The notes under the pieces: model-generated
What the model was told of the DNA's origin: nothing
The model's database searches: none
The model's input: the letters and a program-made list of their open reading frames with translations, nothing else
Sequence record: MH675927.1
DNA from: Escherichia phage vB_vPM_PD114
Strand: one strand, 5' to 3'
DNA length: 64,000 bases
Translations under genes and position numbers: made by a program
In this document: positions 50,674-64,000 of the stretch, piece by piece
Layout: every line of letters begins with the position of its first letter
How positions within the stretch are numbered: position 1 is the first letter of the stretch

Positions 50674-51864
50674 ATGCCAGCACCAAAATCATGGGAACAA
50701 TATAAAGAAGAGTGTCAACTTCTTGCGAATAAGAAGGGGATTGAGATCCTAGGGTATGTTGAACCGTTTATAGGGGGTAGTACAAAAATGATCCTACGCT
50801 GTAGACAGAAACATGAATGGAATACTTGTAGTATTAAGAATTTCAAGCGCGGTAGAAGTTGTCCTATCTGTGCTGGTAAAAGCAAGACGTTAGAAGATTA
50901 CCTTGCAGAATGCCAGCCATTAGCTGTTGAAAGAGGGATAGAGATTTTAGGTATCAATGGTGAGTTTATAGGTTGTGATACGAAAATGATGCTACGTTGT
51001 AGGCATGGTCACGAATGGAACACATGTAGCTTTGATAATTTTAAACGTGGCAATGGTTGTCTTGTATGTAGGTATGAGAATACAAGGAAGTTACAAACAA
51101 TATCCGACGATCAACACGTTGCAGACTTCTTTTCTACTGGTGTCTTCCCTGAAGGCACTATCTTCACTAACACAGGAAGAAGTAACAAATTTGGAAAAAG
51201 TATTTGGATGATTGAGTGTCCTGTTTGTTCTCACGATGAATATGTGAAAGCTGGTGTATGTAATGGTAAATTTTATTCTAGAGGGTGTCACCTAAAACAA
51301 GGGAGTATCCCTTGCCGTTGTTCTACAAACTACCGTTATACAAAAGATCAGATCACCTACAGGGTAAAAAAGACAGTAGAAAGGAAAGGGTATGTTTGGG
51401 TAGGTTGGATCGGTAAACCGTCTATAAGACCAGGTAAGTTTAAATATCTTTGTCTTATGCATGGGGAACAGATAGGGCGTGCTGATTCCTTATTAAATCA
51501 GGATAGTGGTTGTCCACAATGTGCTGGTCATAGTCAACAGCAATTATATATTAATATTGTTAAAGATAATGATATTATAGTTGCTCTTAAGTTTGGCATA
51601 GCTAAAGATAGCGATAGACGATTAAACAGTCAAAATAGCCGTAATCTGTTTTTTATGGAGCGTATTTGTTTATATGATTTTAGCACAGTGAAACAGTGTA
51701 AGGCTGCTGAAAGAGCTATAAAGAAAAAATTAAAAACTGGTATTTTAACAGCAAGAGAGTTGAAAGACGGTCATACAGAAACAGTAAGTGTTTCTGATTT
51801 GGAAAATCTTCAAAAAATTATTACACAATGTGGTGGCAAATTAGTATACAATAAGGAGGTGTAA
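50674..51864 (+). CDS. zinc-ribbon repeat protein with C-terminal T5orf172/GIY-YIG-like domain (putative DNA-binding or nuclease)
   Basis: Repeated units ...HEWNTCS..NFKRG..CP.C...; C-terminal LYINIVKDNDIIVALKFGIAKDSDRRLNSQNS resembles the T5orf172 motif. Confidence 0.4.
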   Translation: MPAPKSWEQYKEECQLLANKKGIEILGYVEPFIGGSTKMILRCRQKHEWNTCSIKNFKRGRSCPICAGKSKTLEDYLAECQPLAVERGIEILGINGEFIGCDTKMMLRCRHGHEWNTCSFDNFKRGNGCLVCRYENTRKLQTISDDQHVADFFSTGVFPEGTIFTNTGRSNKFGKSIWMIECPVCSHDEYVKAGVCNGKFYSRGCHLKQGSIPCRCSTNYRYTKDQITYRVKKTVERKGYVWVGWIGKPSIRPGKFKYLCLMHGEQIGRADSLLNQDSGCPQCAGHSQQQLYINIVKDNDIIVALKFGIAKDSDRRLNSQNSRNLFFMERICLYDFSTVKQCKAAERAIKKKLKTGILTARELKDGHTETVSVSDLENLQKIITQCGGKLVYNKEV

Positions 51865-52416
51865 ATGCGGATTACTGACAAGTATGTGTTCTTCTTCTCG
51901 GCAAAAGATGAATTTAGCAACTGGTATCTATCATCTTTTATTGAACCTTTAGCTCCCAAGTATAATAATTCTATTACAAGTTCTGTCGAATTTACTTGTG
52001 TGGAACAATATATGATGTGGAGAAAAGCATGTTTGTTTTATGATTACAATATTGCATCTTCTATTTTAACCGGAGATCTAAGATATACAGGAGAAAAAGA
52101 ACAAGCATATTATAAACGACTAGGCAGATCAGTTAAAGATTATGATGAAGATACTTGGACTTCTTTACGGGAGAAGATTGTCAAGCGTGGTTTGTATCTT
52201 AAATACACACAAAATGAAGATCTCAAAAATAAACTTATCGCTTACGCAGATAAGGAGTTCGTAGAGGCAAGCCCCTATGATTCTATTTATGGTATCAAAA
52301 TGGGGATGTGGGATCGTGATGTTGAAAACAAGGATTGTTGGAAAGGACAAAATCTTTTAGGAAAATGGCATACAGACCTTGCTGTTTATCTAAAAACACA
52401 ATCTGATATTTCCTGA
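51865..52416 (+). CDS. NADAR (YbiA/DUF1768) family protein, predicted ADP-ribosyl N-glycosidase
   Basis: VFFFSAKDEFSNW...FTCVEQYMMWRKA...RLGRSV...ASPYDSIYGIKMG...GQNLLGK colinear with the YbiA/NADAR signature; RBS AAGGAGG. Confidence 0.75.
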   Translation: MRITDKYVFFFSAKDEFSNWYLSSFIEPLAPKYNNSITSSVEFTCVEQYMMWRKACLFYDYNIASSILTGDLRYTGEKEQAYYKRLGRSVKDYDEDTWTSLREKIVKRGLYLKYTQNEDLKNKLIAYADKEFVEASPYDSIYGIKMGMWDRDVENKDCWKGQNLLGKWHTDLAVYLKTQSDIS

Positions 52417-52634
52417 TATTTTGAAAATTTTTATTTTTATAAAAAGGGGTGTGGGTTTCATGTACGGAAATCCACCCTCTGAATAATATATCCAGAGTAA
52501 GTAGTATTCTGTACTCTGTTAATAAAGTATTTAATTTGTTTGTTGGACTATGATATCTGATCTTTAAAAGGCATACTATCTCTTAACTACTACTTATAAC
52601 AAAACAGTAAAATCCTTTTTATAAAAAGTACAAA

Positions 52635-52840
52635 ATTATTTAAAGTTTTTACAGATTTTCGGGTACAAATTTTGAAAATGAAAAGTTCAAGTTTGGTCAA
52701 AATTATTTAAAGTTTTTGTACGTATTTCTATCCAGATTTTGAAAATGAAAACTTCAATTTTTTAAAAATTCCCCAGTTTATTTAAAGTTTTTTTGCCTTT
52801 TTCCGTAGAAAAATCAAAAATGAAAAGTTCAATTTCGTGT
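52635..52840. repeat. three tandem direct repeats of about 66-76 bp
   Basis: Each unit has TTATTTAAAGTTTTT (52635, 52701, 52777) and TTTTGAAAATGAAAAGTTCAA (52671, 52737, 52811). Confidence 0.7.
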
Positions 52841-52855
52841 TTTTATAGGTGTGTT

Positions 52856-52967
52856 AATGAGAATCATTTTCGTTTGTAAATGAGAATCATTATCATTTAA
52901 CTATGTAAGTGATAATCATTCTCAGTAAGAGAATGAGAATCATTAGCAAATGAGAATTTTTCTCATT
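52856..52967. promoter_or_regulatory. cluster of Fur-box-like palindromic sites (AATGAGAATCATT family)
   Basis: At least five copies; AATGAGAATCATTATC (52879-52894) matches 15/16 positions of the E. coli Fur consensus; perfect palindrome AATGAGAA-TTT-TTCTCATT at 52948-52966. Confidence 0.45.
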
Positions 52968-53229
52968 TACAGAATAACGCGCAGGGGCGGTGTTTGTCTC
53001 GCGCTCCCGTGTCCCCTCGCCATACAATAAGAATAGCATAACCAACAACAAAAGCAAGCGATTATTTTTATCTTTACATTTCTTTACAAATTTATTTTAG
53101 ACGAGCTACCGGCGATCAACCTTCCAACCAGTGCCCCCTGGTATGTTAGCCCCGCCTTTACGCCGTGGGGGTGGCGTTTCCTCTTCTGTATGTAAAACAG
53201 TATAAGCCCGATCCCTGGGCTTGTCAAGA

Positions 53230-53496
53230 TTATTTTTTGTTTTCTTGCCAGGATAGGACACCTAACCAAAAATACATGTCGCCCCGCGCCCCTGGTGGGA
53301 TCTTGCTTTCCCCGCCGCCACTGCAAGCCCATAGATAACCATTTACGAACGTATCAAAGTGATCTATCTCTTCCACCTTATGATCGCCCAGGTTGAGAAC
53401 GGTTTCAACCTTTAAGCCCGTTGCGCTTGCTACCTGGTGCACCGTGCCGCCTTGCCAGCCCAGTGAGTGCATGAGATGTAAAGGAGTATTTGTCAT
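53230..53496 (-). CDS. hypothetical protein in a G+C-rich island
   Basis: 88-aa ORF with RBS AAAGGG; region is visibly more G+C-rich than its surroundings; no motif recognised. Confidence 0.35.
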   Translation of the reverse strand: MTNTPLHLMHSLGWQGGTVHQVASATGLKVETVLNLGDHKVEEIDHFDTFVNGYLWACSGGGESKIPPGARGDMYFWLGVLSWQENKK

Positions 53497-53607
53497 GGTA
53501 TCGCCCTTTCTTTGTTGTGCGCCCTGGTTGGCGCGGTAGAAAGATGATAGCCGTTTCCTTTATAGATAGCAAGCAAAAAAGAAATGAAAAAAGATTAAAA
53601 AAAATGG

Positions 53608-53636
53608 TTGACGTTCCTCACCTGGTAGCGTAGTAT
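53608..53636 (+). promoter_or_regulatory. sigma70-like promoter (TTGACG-17-TAGTAT), first of the rightward early-gene array
   Basis: Near-consensus hexamers with 17-bp spacer about 130 nt upstream of 53765. Confidence 0.5.
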
Positions 53637-53764
53637 TCATCTTGTCGAGGGGCGGCAAGGCACAACGACAATAAACAATAGGCGGGTGCAATGCAAGACG
53701 GGCAAAGGTGAGGATCTCCACAATCCACCGTCACAATAACATTACTTATAAAAGGTTGATAACA

Positions 53765-53869
53765 ATGATCAAGAAAGAAAATAGCTTGACGGTTGGAACG
53801 ATTAACGCTATCATTCTTGCCGTTCCCTTTTGGATTGTAGTGTCAGTTATTATTTCAATCATTCTATAA
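53765..53869 (+). CDS. small membrane peptide (34 aa; not in ORF track)
   Basis: ATG with AAAGG RBS; hydrophobic. Confidence 0.3.
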   Translation: MIKKENSLTVGTINAIILAVPFWIVVSVIISIIL

Positions 53870-53879
53870 GGCGCACACT

Positions 53880-54161
53880 ATGAGCAAGGTAATTAGTCAT
53901 AAAGAGTTAAGCCCTACTCTTTCAATGAGTGAGTGCACCGATGGCTTTTGGCTGTATGATGATACGCGCGGCATGAATTTAGCTATGCGTGAAAAAACAG
54001 AAGAGGCGGCGTATATTGAAGCCCTGGAATACTACCAGGAACGACTAAAGGAAGTAGAAAACAATTATAATAACCTAAAAACAAAGGTAGATCATTTTAT
54101 CAGCCAGGTGGCAGATGACGACGATGATCACTATTGCGAGCGGTGCGGATCATACAGCTAA
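53880..54161 (+). CDS. hypothetical protein
   Basis: 93 aa; acidic DDDDD tract and C-terminal CERCG. Confidence 0.45.
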   Translation: MSKVISHKELSPTLSMSECTDGFWLYDDTRGMNLAMREKTEEAAYIEALEYYQERLKEVENNYNNLKTKVDHFISQVADDDDDHYCERCGSYS

Positions 54162-54181
54162 AATTATTTTTAAAAATATTC

Positions 54182-54242
54182 TTGACAACGTTTTTTAAAC
54201 TGATAAGATGTATCACATAGGGCGGCGGAATACTTCCCCGCC
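54182..54242 (+). promoter_or_regulatory. sigma70 promoter (TTGACA-16-TAAGAT, extended TG) plus GC-rich leader hairpin
   Basis: TTGACA 54182-54187, TAAGAT 54204-54209, hairpin GGGCGGCGGAATACTTCCCCGCC 54220-54242, then RBS and ATG 54265; 40-nt promoter sequence repeated at 56520. Confidence 0.6.
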
Positions 54243-54264
54243 AAAACAAAAAAAGGGTAATGCA

Positions 54265-54627
54265 ATGAGCAAGCAAATCAATACTATCATGTTTAATCTG
54301 GTATCTTTCCGCGACGATATGAAAAATTTACCACGTGAAACGGTTGATATTCATGTTTCAGCTTATCGCGCCCTTATTGATATGTTACCGCTAAAACGTG
54401 ATCAACATGCCGCTAATATGATGCTTAATGCTATGCTTAAAAAGATGATTCAAACGGATCTCACCCTGGCGTATGAGTATCAAGGGCGCTTATATGCAAC
54501 TTACAACAAGGCGGTACCTGGTCTGGGAAGTACCGAAGAGTTGCACGGCTTAAACCTGGATCAAAACACTTGGGATAGTATGCGCCGCGTTATGGTATGG
54601 GCCGAAAGCGGTAAAATTTACGAATAA
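54265..54627 (+). CDS. hypothetical protein
   Basis: Start at ATG 54265 (RBS AAGGG) downstream of promoter and hairpin; the longer track ORF begins inside the promoter. Confidence 0.5.
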   Translation: MSKQINTIMFNLVSFRDDMKNLPRETVDIHVSAYRALIDMLPLKRDQHAANMMLNAMLKKMIQTDLTLAYEYQGRLYATYNKAVPGLGSTEELHGLNLDQNTWDSMRRVMVWAESGKIYE

Positions 54628-54633
54628 AAACGG

Positions 54634-54686
54634 TTGACATTGCACTAAAACCTGATAAGCTATCTTAAAGCGGGAACTATTCCCGC
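54634..54686 (+). promoter_or_regulatory. sigma70 promoter (TTGACA-16-TAAGCT) plus leader hairpin GCGGGAA-CTA-TTCCCGC
   Basis: TTGACA 54634-54639; hairpin 54670-54686. Confidence 0.55.
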
Positions 54687-54705
54687 TTACATAGGATAAA
54701 ACTTT

Positions 54706-54852
54706 ATGAAACAATATGTAATGAGTATTCATACCAAAAACGGCGCTACTGTTACGACTCCGGCACGGTTTGCACTTGTAAACCGTTGCAACAGACTAAA
54801 ACGAGAGCTAAAAAATAACCGTGCAACGGGCTTTAAACGCTGGGGAGGATAA
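54706..54852 (+). CDS. small hypothetical basic protein (48 aa; not in ORF track)
   Basis: ATG 54706 after promoter and hairpin; stop 2 nt before the next gene start. Confidence 0.35.
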   Translation: MKQYVMSIHTKNGATVTTPARFALVNRCNRLKRELKNNRATGFKRWGG

Positions 54853-54854
54853 TC

Positions 54855-55115
54855 TTGTTTTTTCTAAAAGTTTTTGATAATGTGATCGCTTTTGAACATG
54901 CTACAACGTTCGACCTGGCGAGATATGCTATCAGGTTTAAAGATAATGTTTATCCCCGTGCTGGCGGCGGTTACACTATTTTTAATCATCGCAACGCGCA
55001 ACTGACTGATGTAACTAATCCAGATCCTGGAGTGTATCGGATAGGCTGGCTACCGTCAAAAGACGCTGCAAGCATGTTTAAGGTATGTAAACTACTAACA
55101 GAAGAGGCGAACTAG
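54855..55115 (+). CDS. hypothetical protein
   Basis: TTG start with RBS GGAGGAT; 86 aa. Confidence 0.45.
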   Translation: MFFLKVFDNVIAFEHATTFDLARYAIRFKDNVYPRAGGGYTIFNHRNAQLTDVTNPDPGVYRIGWLPSKDAASMFKVCKLLTEEAN

Positions 55116-56270: not shown

Positions 56271-56510
56271 ATGGCTAAATCTAAAATGTACAACGGTCAC
56301 AAAAATAAAACTCATTGGAATGTAAGCCTTTGGATTAATAACGATCCAGGTTTTTATAATATGGCAAAAGAATTTATAGCCGTGAACAACAATAAAGATA
56401 ACGCCGCGCGTGAAATGATGTCACTACTTAACGAAATGGGCCAAACTACTACGCCAGATGGCTATAAATTCAGTAAAACCAGTATCCGCGCCGCTATGGT
56501 AGGAATGTAA
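56271..56510 (+). CDS. hypothetical protein
   Basis: 79 aa. Confidence 0.5.
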   Translation: MAKSKMYNGHKNKTHWNVSLWINNDPGFYNMAKEFIAVNNNKDNAAREMMSLLNEMGQTTTPDGYKFSKTSIRAAMVGM

Positions 56511-56519
56511 TAAAAACAG

Positions 56520-56579
56520 TTGACAACGTTTTTTAAACTGATAAGATGTATCACATAGGGCGGGAAATGGTTTCCCGCC
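56520..56579 (+). promoter_or_regulatory. sigma70 promoter (TTGACA-16-TAAGAT) plus 21-bp palindrome GGCGGGAAATGGTTTCCCGCC
   Basis: Promoter nearly identical over 40 nt to the one at 54182; palindrome 56559-56579. Confidence 0.6.
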
Positions 56580-56601
56580 AAATCAAAGAAAGGTTAACAT
56601 T

Positions 56602-61754: not shown

Positions 61755-62097
61755 ATTCTTTTTTCACGATAGAAACAACACGTAAAGAATAGGCGTAAAG
61801 GTGGCGTAAAACCATCTAAAACCGATTGTAACCGCTTAAACAAGGTAGGGATGATTAATCACCTTACCAGGACGAAAAAGCCGTTATAAAGCTATCTAGA
61901 GCGTTTAAAGCACATAGGAAATAATTTGCTTTTTATCTTGCCTTTTATTCTGCTTTTGATTATTATTATGGAACGGGCGGCACCTGGGGACAGGGGAAGA
62001 TAATCACCGGAAGATCCCGCTATATATTGATAGCTAACATCTATCAAACAACAAAACATCAAAGGAATAAACTATCAAATCTTTACAATCTCACCTA

Positions 62098-62156
62098 TTG
62101 ACACCGGATCGCCCTTATACTAAGATGTATCACGTAGGCGGGAAGTGGTTTCCCGC
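62098..62156 (+). promoter_or_regulatory. sigma70 promoter (TTGACA-17-TAAGAT) plus leader hairpin GCGGGAA-GTGG-TTCCCGC
   Basis: TTGACA 62098-62103, TAAGAT 62121-62126, hairpin 62138-62156. Confidence 0.6.
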
Positions 62157-62175
62157 TCAATATAGGAATCATATC

Positions 62176-62406
62176 ATGATCGAACAAATTAAACGCGCTG
62201 AGGCTATTAACGGCAATGTGATCTATTCTGTCAGCAATAACGAAAAAGGCGTACCTTATGCAGCGGTGATAGTACAGCCTGACGGTGATTATTGGTTTAC
62301 TGTATACGGATCTTATTCTTTTGGGCGTCCAGTACATGATAAAATTTTGAAAGTAGCTAATCCCACCGGCAAGAATATCACAGTAGAAAAATTCTATGAA
62401 AAATAA
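62176..62406 (+). CDS. hypothetical protein
   Basis: Start at ATG 62176 after the hairpin; 76 aa. Confidence 0.5.
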   Translation: MIEQIKRAEAINGNVIYSVSNNEKGVPYAAVIVQPDGDYWFTVYGSYSFGRPVHDKILKVANPTGKNITVEKFYEK

Positions 62407-62865: not shown

Positions 62866-62877
62866 ATAACATTTCAC

Positions 62878-62907
62878 ACAAGGGCGCAATAAGCGCCCTT
62901 TCTTTTT
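62878..62907 (+). terminator. rho-independent terminator (GGGCGC-AATA-GCGCCC)
   Basis: Same hairpin as at 57997; followed by TTTCTTTTT. Confidence 0.7.
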
Positions 62908-63111
62908 ACCTCAATAAAGATGATATCTTTTACCTATCAAAAACGTTCACCGAAAAAGTGAATAGATCGCGGTATCGAGCTAATCAAGGAGCAGATGAAC
63001 AACCATACCATGAAGATCATAAGGCGCTTACAACGTGTTTTAGACCGCTTATTTTTAATTTCTTCATGCAACTATCTGGCAAAAACAGCCTTTTTCTTGT
63101 CTTTCCTCTTA

Positions 63112-63184
63112 AATGATAATCATTCTTATTTATAGCTGATTATTTATGCAATAAACTGAATAATGTAATAATGATAATCATTCT
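63112..63184. promoter_or_regulatory. two Fur-box-like sites (AATGATAATCATTCTTA)
   Basis: ATAATGATAATCATTCT (63168-63184) matches 16/17 positions of the E. coli Fur consensus; second copy at 63112-63128. Confidence 0.45.
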
Positions 63185-63911
63185 TAACTTAAGACCATCT
63201 AACCTATAAAATAATAAGTTATCTAACTAAATTAAAACTAATTATCTCACCTTTATTTATAACTTACTGTTACTATGTCATTGATAACCTTATATTAAAC
63301 AACAATAACTAATATAAATCATTACTAAGCTAAATATAATATATCTAACCTTTAAAACTATAACTATAATCTATTGAATTATTGCACAAAGTAACTATTA
63401 AATCGTTAGTAACATTACTAAATAATTCATATCCTATCTATTTATAATCTAACCTTTATCTTCCTATCTATTACCTAAGTAATCATTTCATACAATAATT
63501 ATAACAAGAAATATAATTAGCAAGCGTATCATTAGCAGCCTATGCCGGACACATAGGCGGCTAATAATAACGCAACTACACACCTCACATAATAACCATC
63601 ACCGATAGTTATTATCTGTGCTTATGTAGCTTGCAACAACTGCAAGCGCAACAATATACATGGTATATTGTATTCCCTTACATTGTTGCGGTGCGTTATT
63701 ATTAGCTAATGTTTGGAACATTGGCTATAATATAAGCTATCCAATAATAAACATAGTGAATAATGACCCTGATGATCATAATGCGCCACCTTCCAGGGGG
63801 CGCTATGTGAACACAAAGAAATCTTTCTTGTCAAGAAAAATATTACCATTATTGCGCAAAATTATTTACATCTGAATAGATGGTTTTTCATACTATTGCC
63901 CCCAATACTAT

Positions 63912-64000
63912 CCCTATTTGTTGTTATTTGTTGGATAAAATTATCCCTATTTGTTGCAGTATAAACTATTATTTGTTGCCCTAACTATTGCTATTTGTTG
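63912..64000. repeat. iteron-like direct repeats (C)TATTTGTTG, at least five copies, running to the window edge
   Basis: CCCTATTTGTTG at 63912 and 63945; TTATTTGTTG at 63924 and 63969; CTATTTGTTG at 63991. Confidence 0.6.

Follow-up and report, generated by a model that had tools for sequence, protein, structure and literature searches.

Why is a stretch of about 600 bp in the genome of Escherichia phage vB_vPM_PD114 (MH675927.1) so much richer in G+C than the DNA around it, and what does it hold apart from one short open reading frame (ORF) on the reverse strand? We addressed this question by computation on the sequence of a 64,000-nt stretch of this genome, hereafter the window, whose positions serve as coordinates throughout; features on the minus strand are read towards decreasing coordinates. 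A preliminary description of the window had noted the island at 52970-53560 and had suggested that it was either a separately acquired insert or a structured non-coding RNA locus. Sliding-window analysis confirmed the composition break, with a G+C content of 49.4% at 52970-53560 against a window mean of 37.9% (591-nt windows, standard deviation 3.0, z = 3.9). Only 0.03% of the 591-nt windows attain 49.4%, the highest lying at 53099-53689, and the island adjoins the 591-nt stretch with the lowest G+C content of all (52386-52976, 25.2%). The 88-aa gene in the island, gp224, is ordinary, and the interest of the locus lies in an unannotated module of RNAs, promoters, Fur-box-like sites and iterons beside it. 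Of the two suggestions, the structured RNA locus was borne out in a modified form: it is probably read from the minus strand, is found for the most part leftward of the ORF, at 52970-53227, and is made up of two modules, each with its own promoter. Two sources can account for the high G+C content of the island, namely the G+C stems and the hairpin spacers within its RNA and promoter modules, and the atypical codon composition of gp224.

The first line of evidence is conservation. The phage is phi92-like, of the genus Justusliebigvirus in the subfamily Stephanstirmvirinae, and the region shares 98% identity with Escherichia phage vB_vPM_PD06 and 94% with phi92. Sensitive blastn placed the segment at the same syntenic position in 239 phage records, and the non-coding part is kept in two subfamilies, Stephanstirmvirinae and Vequintavirinae. 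In Vequintavirinae (genera Mydovirus, Certrevirus, Seunavirus and Henunavirus) the gp224 ORF is swapped or missing, and its slot contains an unrelated 61-aa DUF7170 ORF, a third small ORF or nothing. Identity in distant genera is approximately 84% over 53071-53196 and 76% over 52960-53190, and the flanks can no longer be aligned. At 75-85% identity between the subfamilies, this is the best-conserved non-coding DNA that we found around the island. The non-coding core outlasts the neighbouring ORF, with the deepest conservation to the left of gp224 and apparently on the minus strand. A coding role for the core was rejected because relatives carry 1-nt indels and have lost the only ATG, and the ORFs listed at 53084-53338 are spurious.

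The element has left few traces in existing resources. Deposited records are mostly blank here, or have short spurious ORFs placed over the non-coding core, and in the rV5 genome paper the corresponding place is only a 'non-coding' box. Our literature search found no paper describing the element, and none with a replication origin, transcription map or non-coding RNA for these phages. A degenerate pattern scan of metagenomes yielded at least nine further true copies of the element after filtering, and the same type of scan in bacterial genomes gave no true copy among the matches listed. ARAGORN detected no tRNA or tmRNA in the window or in eight related loci. The tRNA-Met, tRNA-Ile and tRNA-Lys annotated near the element in OY978796 (locus L006, 1362-2057) were not reproduced by ARAGORN and look like annotation errors, and we rejected a tRNA-cluster context for the element. 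The non-coding unit is absent from Rfam and from annotation.

Reading from right to left along the minus strand, we identified the following features:

53544-53572, minus strand: P0, a promoter-like sequence upstream of gp224 (TTGCTA-17-TATCAT, 9/12 in a consensus scan)
53230-53496, minus strand: the gp224 homologue, an ORF of 88 aa with five helices and a helix-turn-helix-like (HTH-like) segment, annotated as Phi92_gp224 'hypothetical' in phi92
53204-53222, minus strand: a G+C hairpin directly after the gp224 stop; it takes up the 17-nt spacer of P1 and is called terminator-like in a scan on the minus strand only
53199-53227, minus strand: P1, a sigma70-type promoter (TTGACA-17-TATACT, 11/12)
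53100-53189, minus strand: RNA1, about 90 nt, with a predicted pseudoknot and a bulged hairpin, showing covariation and a single covariance-model hit and without an Rfam match
53071-53090, no strand assigned: a tandem 10-nt motif, TCTTTACAnnTCTTTACAAA (on the minus strand TGTAAAGA-nn-TGTAAAGA), just upstream of P2 and nearly invariant in the family
53030-53057, minus strand: P2, a promoter at a fixed position (TTGCTT-16-TATTCT)
52970-53025, minus strand: RNA2, a conserved block predicted to fold into an imperfect, G+C-rich hairpin that begins where the P2 transcript would start
52856-52967, no strand assigned: five Fur-box-like palindromes of the AATGAGAATCATTCTCATT type, with motif counts above chance and a conserved position
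52616-52835, no strand assigned: three iterons, direct repeats spaced 67 and 75 bp apart, within DNA of 22-25% G+C

It is very likely, to judge from sequence, that these make up one small minus-strand unit in the order P0, gp224, hairpin and P1, RNA1 without a terminator, P2, RNA2, five Fur-like operators and three iterons.

The two RNA modules are each preceded by a predicted promoter. At the P1 position a promoter scoring 9-12 of 12 was present in all 38 distinct versions of the locus, and P2 scored 7-10 of 12 in all 38, its counterparts in relatives including TTGCAA-17-TATATT, TTGATC-16-TATTAT and TTGACC-17-GATAAT. For both P1 and P2 we found what is expected of sigma70 promoters, namely hexamers at a spacing of 16-18 bp and a position that is kept while the spacer diverges. 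The spacers of P1 in relatives (17-18 nt) differ in sequence and always form a G+C hairpin, and some of these hairpins have GNRA loops and G.U pairs that are possible on the minus strand alone. The preliminary description had pointed to a hairpin followed by a T-run at about 53205-53240. The hairpin, AAGCCC-GATCCCT-GGGCTT, is there, at 53204-53222. The T-run at 53231-53243 consists of the final gp224 codons (..GAA AAC AAA AAA TAA; ..ENKK*) seen from the opposite strand and begins 9 nt beyond the stem, and a plus-strand terminator with this tail fails for these reasons. The tandem motif upstream of P2 has one exact copy in the window, with a single further site at 3 mismatches, and is possibly an UP element or an activator site for P2. 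In Vequintavirinae a third promoter was seen by eye after the Fur-like boxes (for example TTGACT-17-GATACT). All promoters of the unit are directed toward the iterons.

RNA1 is predicted to open with a purine-rich leader, followed by an H-type pseudoknot, a CUAR linker and a hairpin, and to close with an invariant single-stranded AAGGUnRAUCGCCGGNAG. The pseudoknot has a stem 1 of CGCC/GGCG, a first loop of 1-2 nt, a stem 2 of CCCC/GGGG and an A-rich third loop of 6-7 nt, and in the hairpin a one-base bulge separates an outer stem of 3 bp from an inner stem of 2-7 bp, which carries a variable loop. Stem 1 hardly varies and gives no covariation evidence either way. Stem 2 occurs as CCCC/GGGG, CCAA/UUGG, CCAG/CUGG and CUCC/GGGG. 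The outer stem of the hairpin occurs as CAU/AUG, CAG/CUG and GGU/ACC, and a U.U mismatch takes the place of the third pair in CAU..UUG and CGU..UCG versions. Changes on both sides were seen at five of the six pairs of the hairpin (helix H of RNA1), with pairing kept and the loop variable in length. When RNA1 was parsed segment by segment, 293 of 310 cells were paired and seven of the 13 pairs occurred as at least two canonical pair types. In a MAFFT alignment (A4), six pairs had changed on both sides, a number reached in 12 of 500 shuffles, and 23 cells had changed on both sides, which none of 500 shuffles reached. The covariation score of the same alignment was 0.183, compared with 0.065 for shuffled alignments (0/500) and 0.018-0.056 for slid partners. 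The predicted fold is supported for pseudoknot stem 2 and for the hairpin, and we claim no larger architecture. For RNA2, the closing helix AUrGCG/CGYYAU shows A-U, G-C and G.U states, and RNAalifold gave -5.1 on the minus strand versus -1.5 on the plus strand.

A covariance model of RNA1 (R1) found one copy in the window, at a score that is high by construction since the window sequence is part of the model (100.6 bits, E = 2.6e-32), and no second copy. Against the Rfam 15 families, the interval 51500-55000 gave only sub-threshold miRNA-type chance matches at E up to 1, and an Rfam scan of the element in six divergent loci gave nothing. RNA1 resembles preQ1-I-type aptamers in its arrangement and size (P1a-L1-P2a-L2-P1b-A-rich L3-P2b in ~33 nt) but differs in that its L1 and L2 are only 1-2 nt and no downstream ORF or Shine-Dalgarno sequence is regulated. 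The identification as a preQ1-I riboswitch was rejected, given that Rfam offered no match at E up to 1 and no ORF lies downstream on the minus strand. We file the element as a new family of phage promoter-proximal structured non-coding RNA, situated in an origin-like or regulatory non-coding region.

Downstream of both RNA modules lie the putative operators. The AATGAGAATCATTCTCATT motif, which was derived from this locus, has nine matches in the window compared with 0.07 expected, and seven of them are within the array. The 7-1-7 unit TGATAATnATTATCA has seven matches compared with 0.74 expected, and the 19-bp Fur consensus GATAATGATAATCATTATC, a string found in Fur papers, has four matches at up to 3 mismatches compared with 0.03 expected. 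Most relatives have one to three Fur-like boxes in the corresponding position. Compared with the Fur operators of Enterobacterales, five adjacent sites deviate from the 7-1-7 unit by 1-3 mismatches, and three of these sites, together with an overlapping register at 52905, deviate from the 19-mer by 3-4 mismatches. The sites are arrayed as in strongly Fur-controlled promoters. They differ from such operators in being predicted sites in a virulent phage, located downstream of promoters and not over a -35 or -10 element. A BLAST search of the array against E. coli was uninformative for motifs so short. We also considered a conserved plus-strand promoter over a Fur-like box (TTGAAT-18-CAGAAT) and rejected it as too weak and variable.

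Beyond the operators, the iterons provide direct repeats in A+T-rich DNA, as in iteron-type origins. Three repeats at 63-84 bp spacing were present in six of six other phages examined, and the repeat sequence differs between genera, as would be seen if iterons co-evolved with a binding protein. The iteron positions in relatives were as follows:

L004: 1094-1296
L005: 1086-1267
L093: 1223-1431
L095: 1222-1407
L097: 1110-1305

An annotated minus-strand ORF in the A+T-rich region, A73_40, overlies the iterons and is probably no gene.

How might such a unit work? We propose that host RNA polymerase would fire early from P1 and P2, and from the third promoter in Vequintavirinae, and that the nascent leaders would fold and act in cis on non-coding transcripts. 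These ORF-less transcripts would cross the Fur-like operators into the iterons, where transcription could activate or prime an origin-like control region, with the operators gating that transcription. The region may be read as origin-like because tandem promoters aim at the most A+T-rich, repeat-bearing DNA, as they do in transcription-activated origins. Known examples are the primary origin of T7 (tandem phi1.1A/B promoters before an A+T-rich stretch), the promoter transcripts of T4 oriF and oriG and the RNA II primer of ColE1. The locus is like these in having tandem promoters with no ORF behind them that fire into A+T-rich repeat DNA, a G-rich transcribed side and, as in ColE1 RNA II, a conserved transcript fold. 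It differs from them in lying away from the skew minimum, in sharing no sequence similarity with them and in having Fur-like operators, which those origins do not feature. A second comparison is with the put RNAs of HK022, which consist of two stem-loops without a pseudoknot, and with other promoter-proximal leaders that act in cis to modify the transcribing polymerase. Here too a folded non-coding module begins only a few nucleotides from an early sigma70 promoter, and there are two modules for two promoters with no terminator directly behind. Unlike put, RNA1 has a predicted pseudoknot, no similarity was found, and no downstream terminators or genes were identified on that strand. With anatomy and mechanism weighed together, a unit whose cis-acting leaders drive an origin-like control region is the reading that we tentatively prefer. 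Taken by itself, the origin or control-region mechanism is doubtful.

Several observations weigh against this proposal. Cumulative G+C skew in the window reaches its minimum at ~46.8 kb, at the strand switch and away from the locus, and the rV5 authors were unable to locate an origin from skew. The neighbours (an AAA ATPase, the endonuclease-like gp222 and a NADAR protein) include no recognisable initiator gene, and our literature search brought up no transcription map for either subfamily. The lineage of loci L107-L109 has other repeats in place of the Fur-like boxes, and Fur binding at the array is a prediction from sequence. Fur-like sites also occur in a second A+T-rich non-coding zone at 62.9-64 kb. 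As for the RNA, much of the covariation separates a few lineages and so amounts to few independent events. RNAalifold on a wider alignment (A2) gave -7.3 kcal/mol with no covariation term, and single-sequence folding is unexceptional (z-scores of -0.76 for the minus and -1.87 for the plus strand). The RNA1 pair counts are the same on both strands, and variant L102 would have a G.U pair on the plus strand where the minus strand has an A.C.

The second zone was the only place outside the array with a Fur-like cluster (63112-63186), and Fur-like arrays are confined to these two A+T-rich non-coding zones of the window. The zone itself (62870-64000) is non-coding, with 25% G+C, several hairpins and many short repeats (CTATTTGTTG five times near 63915-64000), and by coordinate offset, without direct alignment, it corresponds to a place close to where the phi92 GenBank record ends. 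If the sites function as their sequence predicts, the host iron sensor Fur would gate the development of a virulent phage family and make replication start or the early-to-middle switch iron-dependent. We regard this as quite unlikely.

The alternative that survives best is that RNA1, with or without RNA2, is cut from the P1 transcript as a trans-acting early RNA and serves as a decoy, sponge or antitoxin mimic of a host or defence factor, with the invariant AAGGUnRAUCGCCGGNAG and the pseudoknot as the recognition surface. Its primary sequence is conserved far beyond the needs of a primer or activating transcript, it is a compact folded module with covariation behind a strong constitutive promoter, and interchangeable small ORFs occupy the neighbouring slot, as in counter-defence islands. 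There is also a precedent in the same subfamily, the pseudoknot RNA encoded by phage phiTE that mimics the ToxI antitoxin (PMC3475682). RNA1 is unlike ToxI, which consists of tandem 36-nt units processed by ToxN, whereas RNA1 is a single copy of unrelated sequence. We rejected its identity with pseudo-ToxI or any type III antitoxin, as it forms no tandem array and there is no ToxI-like sequence at the phiTE locus. Two neighbouring proteins that were submitted to PADLOC had no match. A likeness of the element to the 3' end of 16S rRNA, suspected by eye, aligned no better than shuffles (p = 0.35 in the window; p = 0.02 in the best relative), and mimicry was rejected.

The 3' end of RNA1 bears on the same question. 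No intrinsic terminator or recognisable 3' end was found after RNA1, and in two genera something else follows it. In phage cardinal (L003, 2217-2942) and in the contig L078 (6313-7040), about 730 bp is inserted within GATCGC|CGG of the invariant GATCGCCGG. The insert contains a minus-strand HNH homing endonuclease gene (phrog_953, E = 8e-79) followed by a second, divergent P1 and RNA1, of the type that is the sole copy in Klebsiella phage P8734 (L101). The endonuclease ORF stands directly behind RNA1, and no promoter of its own was seen by eye (no promoter scan was made there). This position suggests that P1 transcripts read through and that RNA1 would be a leader and not a terminated small RNA. 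On balance we hold a trans-acting RNA to be unlikely, somewhat more so than the origin-like mechanism.

The same insertions would also suit a locus that works as DNA only, with promoters and protein sites (a homing-endonuclease target, operators, Dam/SeqA) and with helices as by-products of palindromes. The endonuclease has inserted exactly within this sequence in two genera, there are long invariant stretches (GATCGCCGGTAG, and TGTAAAGA twice), the pair statistics are blind to strand and the RNAalifold signal is weak. However, the a-b-a'-b' pairing of a pseudoknot is no palindrome, and three Watson-Crick states are nevertheless kept in it. The hairpin stays paired even where the sequence and length of its stem, and its loop as well, have changed, and on one strand the loops are of GNRA type; both RNA modules start at a fixed distance from conserved promoters. 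A role as DNA only is improbable.

A further possibility concerns the other strand. Read-through from the plus-strand operon at 47.5-52.4 kb might fold with pyrimidine-rich tails and act as a terminator or insulator before the early genes, or as an anti-Shine-Dalgarno-like RNA. Terminator-like calls at 53152-53183 (plus strand), the better fold z-score and the better pairing of variant L102 on that strand are in keeping with this, and CCUCUUC and ACCUUCC tracts are present. Yet the tails have no U-runs and vary among relatives, and no conserved plus-strand promoter was found, the best -10 candidate (TACAAA) lacking the final T. The loops would be UUUC, UGCC or CUUC where the minus strand has the GNRA-type loops GAAA, GGCA and GAAG. 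The pseudoknot loop lengths are those of a standard H-type only in the minus-strand reading, the third loop on the plus strand being 1 nt and sterically unfavourable. RNA2, the spacer hairpins and variant L048 all have G.U pairs on the minus strand; on the plus strand, RNA2 and the spacer hairpins would hold A.C mismatches. We favour the minus strand as the probable functional strand because of the two conserved promoters, the GNRA-type loops, the pseudoknot loop lengths and the G.U pairs, and a plus-strand role seems very improbable.

That the island is a recently acquired foreign insert, for instance of host-derived DNA, is hardly credible: the sharp composition break and the third-position G+C content (GC3) of gp224 (0.53 against 0.29 +/- 0.07 in long ORFs of the window, as the codon-usage check revealed) speak for it, but the segment is at the same position in all relatives, such uniform conservation being what the preliminary description had named as refuting evidence, blastn matched it to none of 5,426 complete E. 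coli genomes, no mobile-element repeats were found in its flanks, the only mobile element seen is the homing endonuclease gene of other phages, absent from this one, and the early genes adjacent to gp224 are likewise raised in GC3 (0.34-0.50).

The preliminary description was right about the 88-aa ORF itself, and a Shine-Dalgarno-like GAAAGGG lies 6 nt ahead of the ATG. Its dN/dS against close relatives is 0.09-0.27, indicating purifying selection, and gp224 is a real gene. Because its GC3 is atypical, an old exchange between phage lineages differing in G+C is possible for this gene. A homology search assigned gp224 to phrog_19316, of unknown function, and returned 21 homologue clusters, none of them functionally named and most nameless. 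No Pfam, PADLOC or PDB sequence-search match was found, and nothing functional was assigned. An AlphaFold2 model (18-sequence alignment) has five helices at a pLDDT of 93.4, with the HTH-like segment at residues 19-38 (helices 19-26 and 30-38). The best Foldseek match in the PDB, Cro (3bd1), was not significant (E = 4.7), BFVD led only to its own family, and we rejected a Cro/XRE-type helix-turn-helix regulator for want of a significant sequence or fold match. Certrevirus relatives have TTGACT-17-CATAAT upstream of the gp224-homologous gene. The spacer of this promoter (in L075 and L096) again forms a G+C hairpin, TTGACT-CCCGGCGGGCCTGGGTC-CATAAT, and promoters with a hairpin in the spacer may form a separate class among these phages.

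The surroundings of the unit can be summarised briefly. From 8 to 47 kb the genes of the window form a block on the minus strand, and from 47.5 kb on they form one on the plus strand; the island is a small opposite-strand unit within the latter. It occupies the right end of a 1.4-kb gene-free region (52417-53707/53880). One further feature lies at its right edge:

53608-53636, plus strand: a candidate divergent promoter, TTGACG-17-TAGTAT (9/12 in the consensus scan), with early genes downstream

The first plus-strand early gene past the island has a leader of ~120 nt (53643-53765) that is fairly rich in G+C and is followed by a hydrophobic 34-aa ORF, with its ATG at 53766, which is without annotation in several records. 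A 21-mer (AATCCACC..) is present at both edges of the non-coding region (52469-52489 and 53722-53742), and the left end also has a perfect 14-bp inverted repeat (52434-52447 / 52614-52627, with 166 nt between). The last gene before the non-coding region (51865-52416) encodes a NADAR domain (Pfam E = 1e-36) and is named YbiA-like N-glycosidase or GTP cyclohydrolase II in some records; its product could be a counter-defence enzyme. Before it, gp222 (50674-51864, 396 aa) is rich in CxxC pairs and may be another homing-type nuclease, with matches to phrog_681 'endonuclease' (E = 2e-78) and to a family of HNH endonucleases. On the far side, an early-promoter module, TTGACA-16-TAAGAT with conserved downstream sequence, is repeated at 54182-54230, ~56460-56580 and ~62095-62340, and yields look-alike spurious minus-strand ORFs (..PPYVIHLISLKNVV..) at several sites.

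In conclusion, a non-coding unit rather than its gene gives this locus its interest. For annotators, our analysis carries the warning that ORF calls over 52970-53229 and the equivalent positions are artefacts. The phi92-, phAPEC8- and rV5-like phages and their relatives from Klebsiella, Salmonella, Cronobacter and Pectobacterium are widely isolated and are candidates for therapy and biocontrol. If the prediction holds, RNA1 would be a new pseudoknot RNA family for Rfam. Control by Fur, and hence by iron, would be unusual, and would possibly be the first case in a virulent phage. Overall, if the RNAs and operators are real, they would offer a testable entry to the start of replication or the timing of early expression in these phages.

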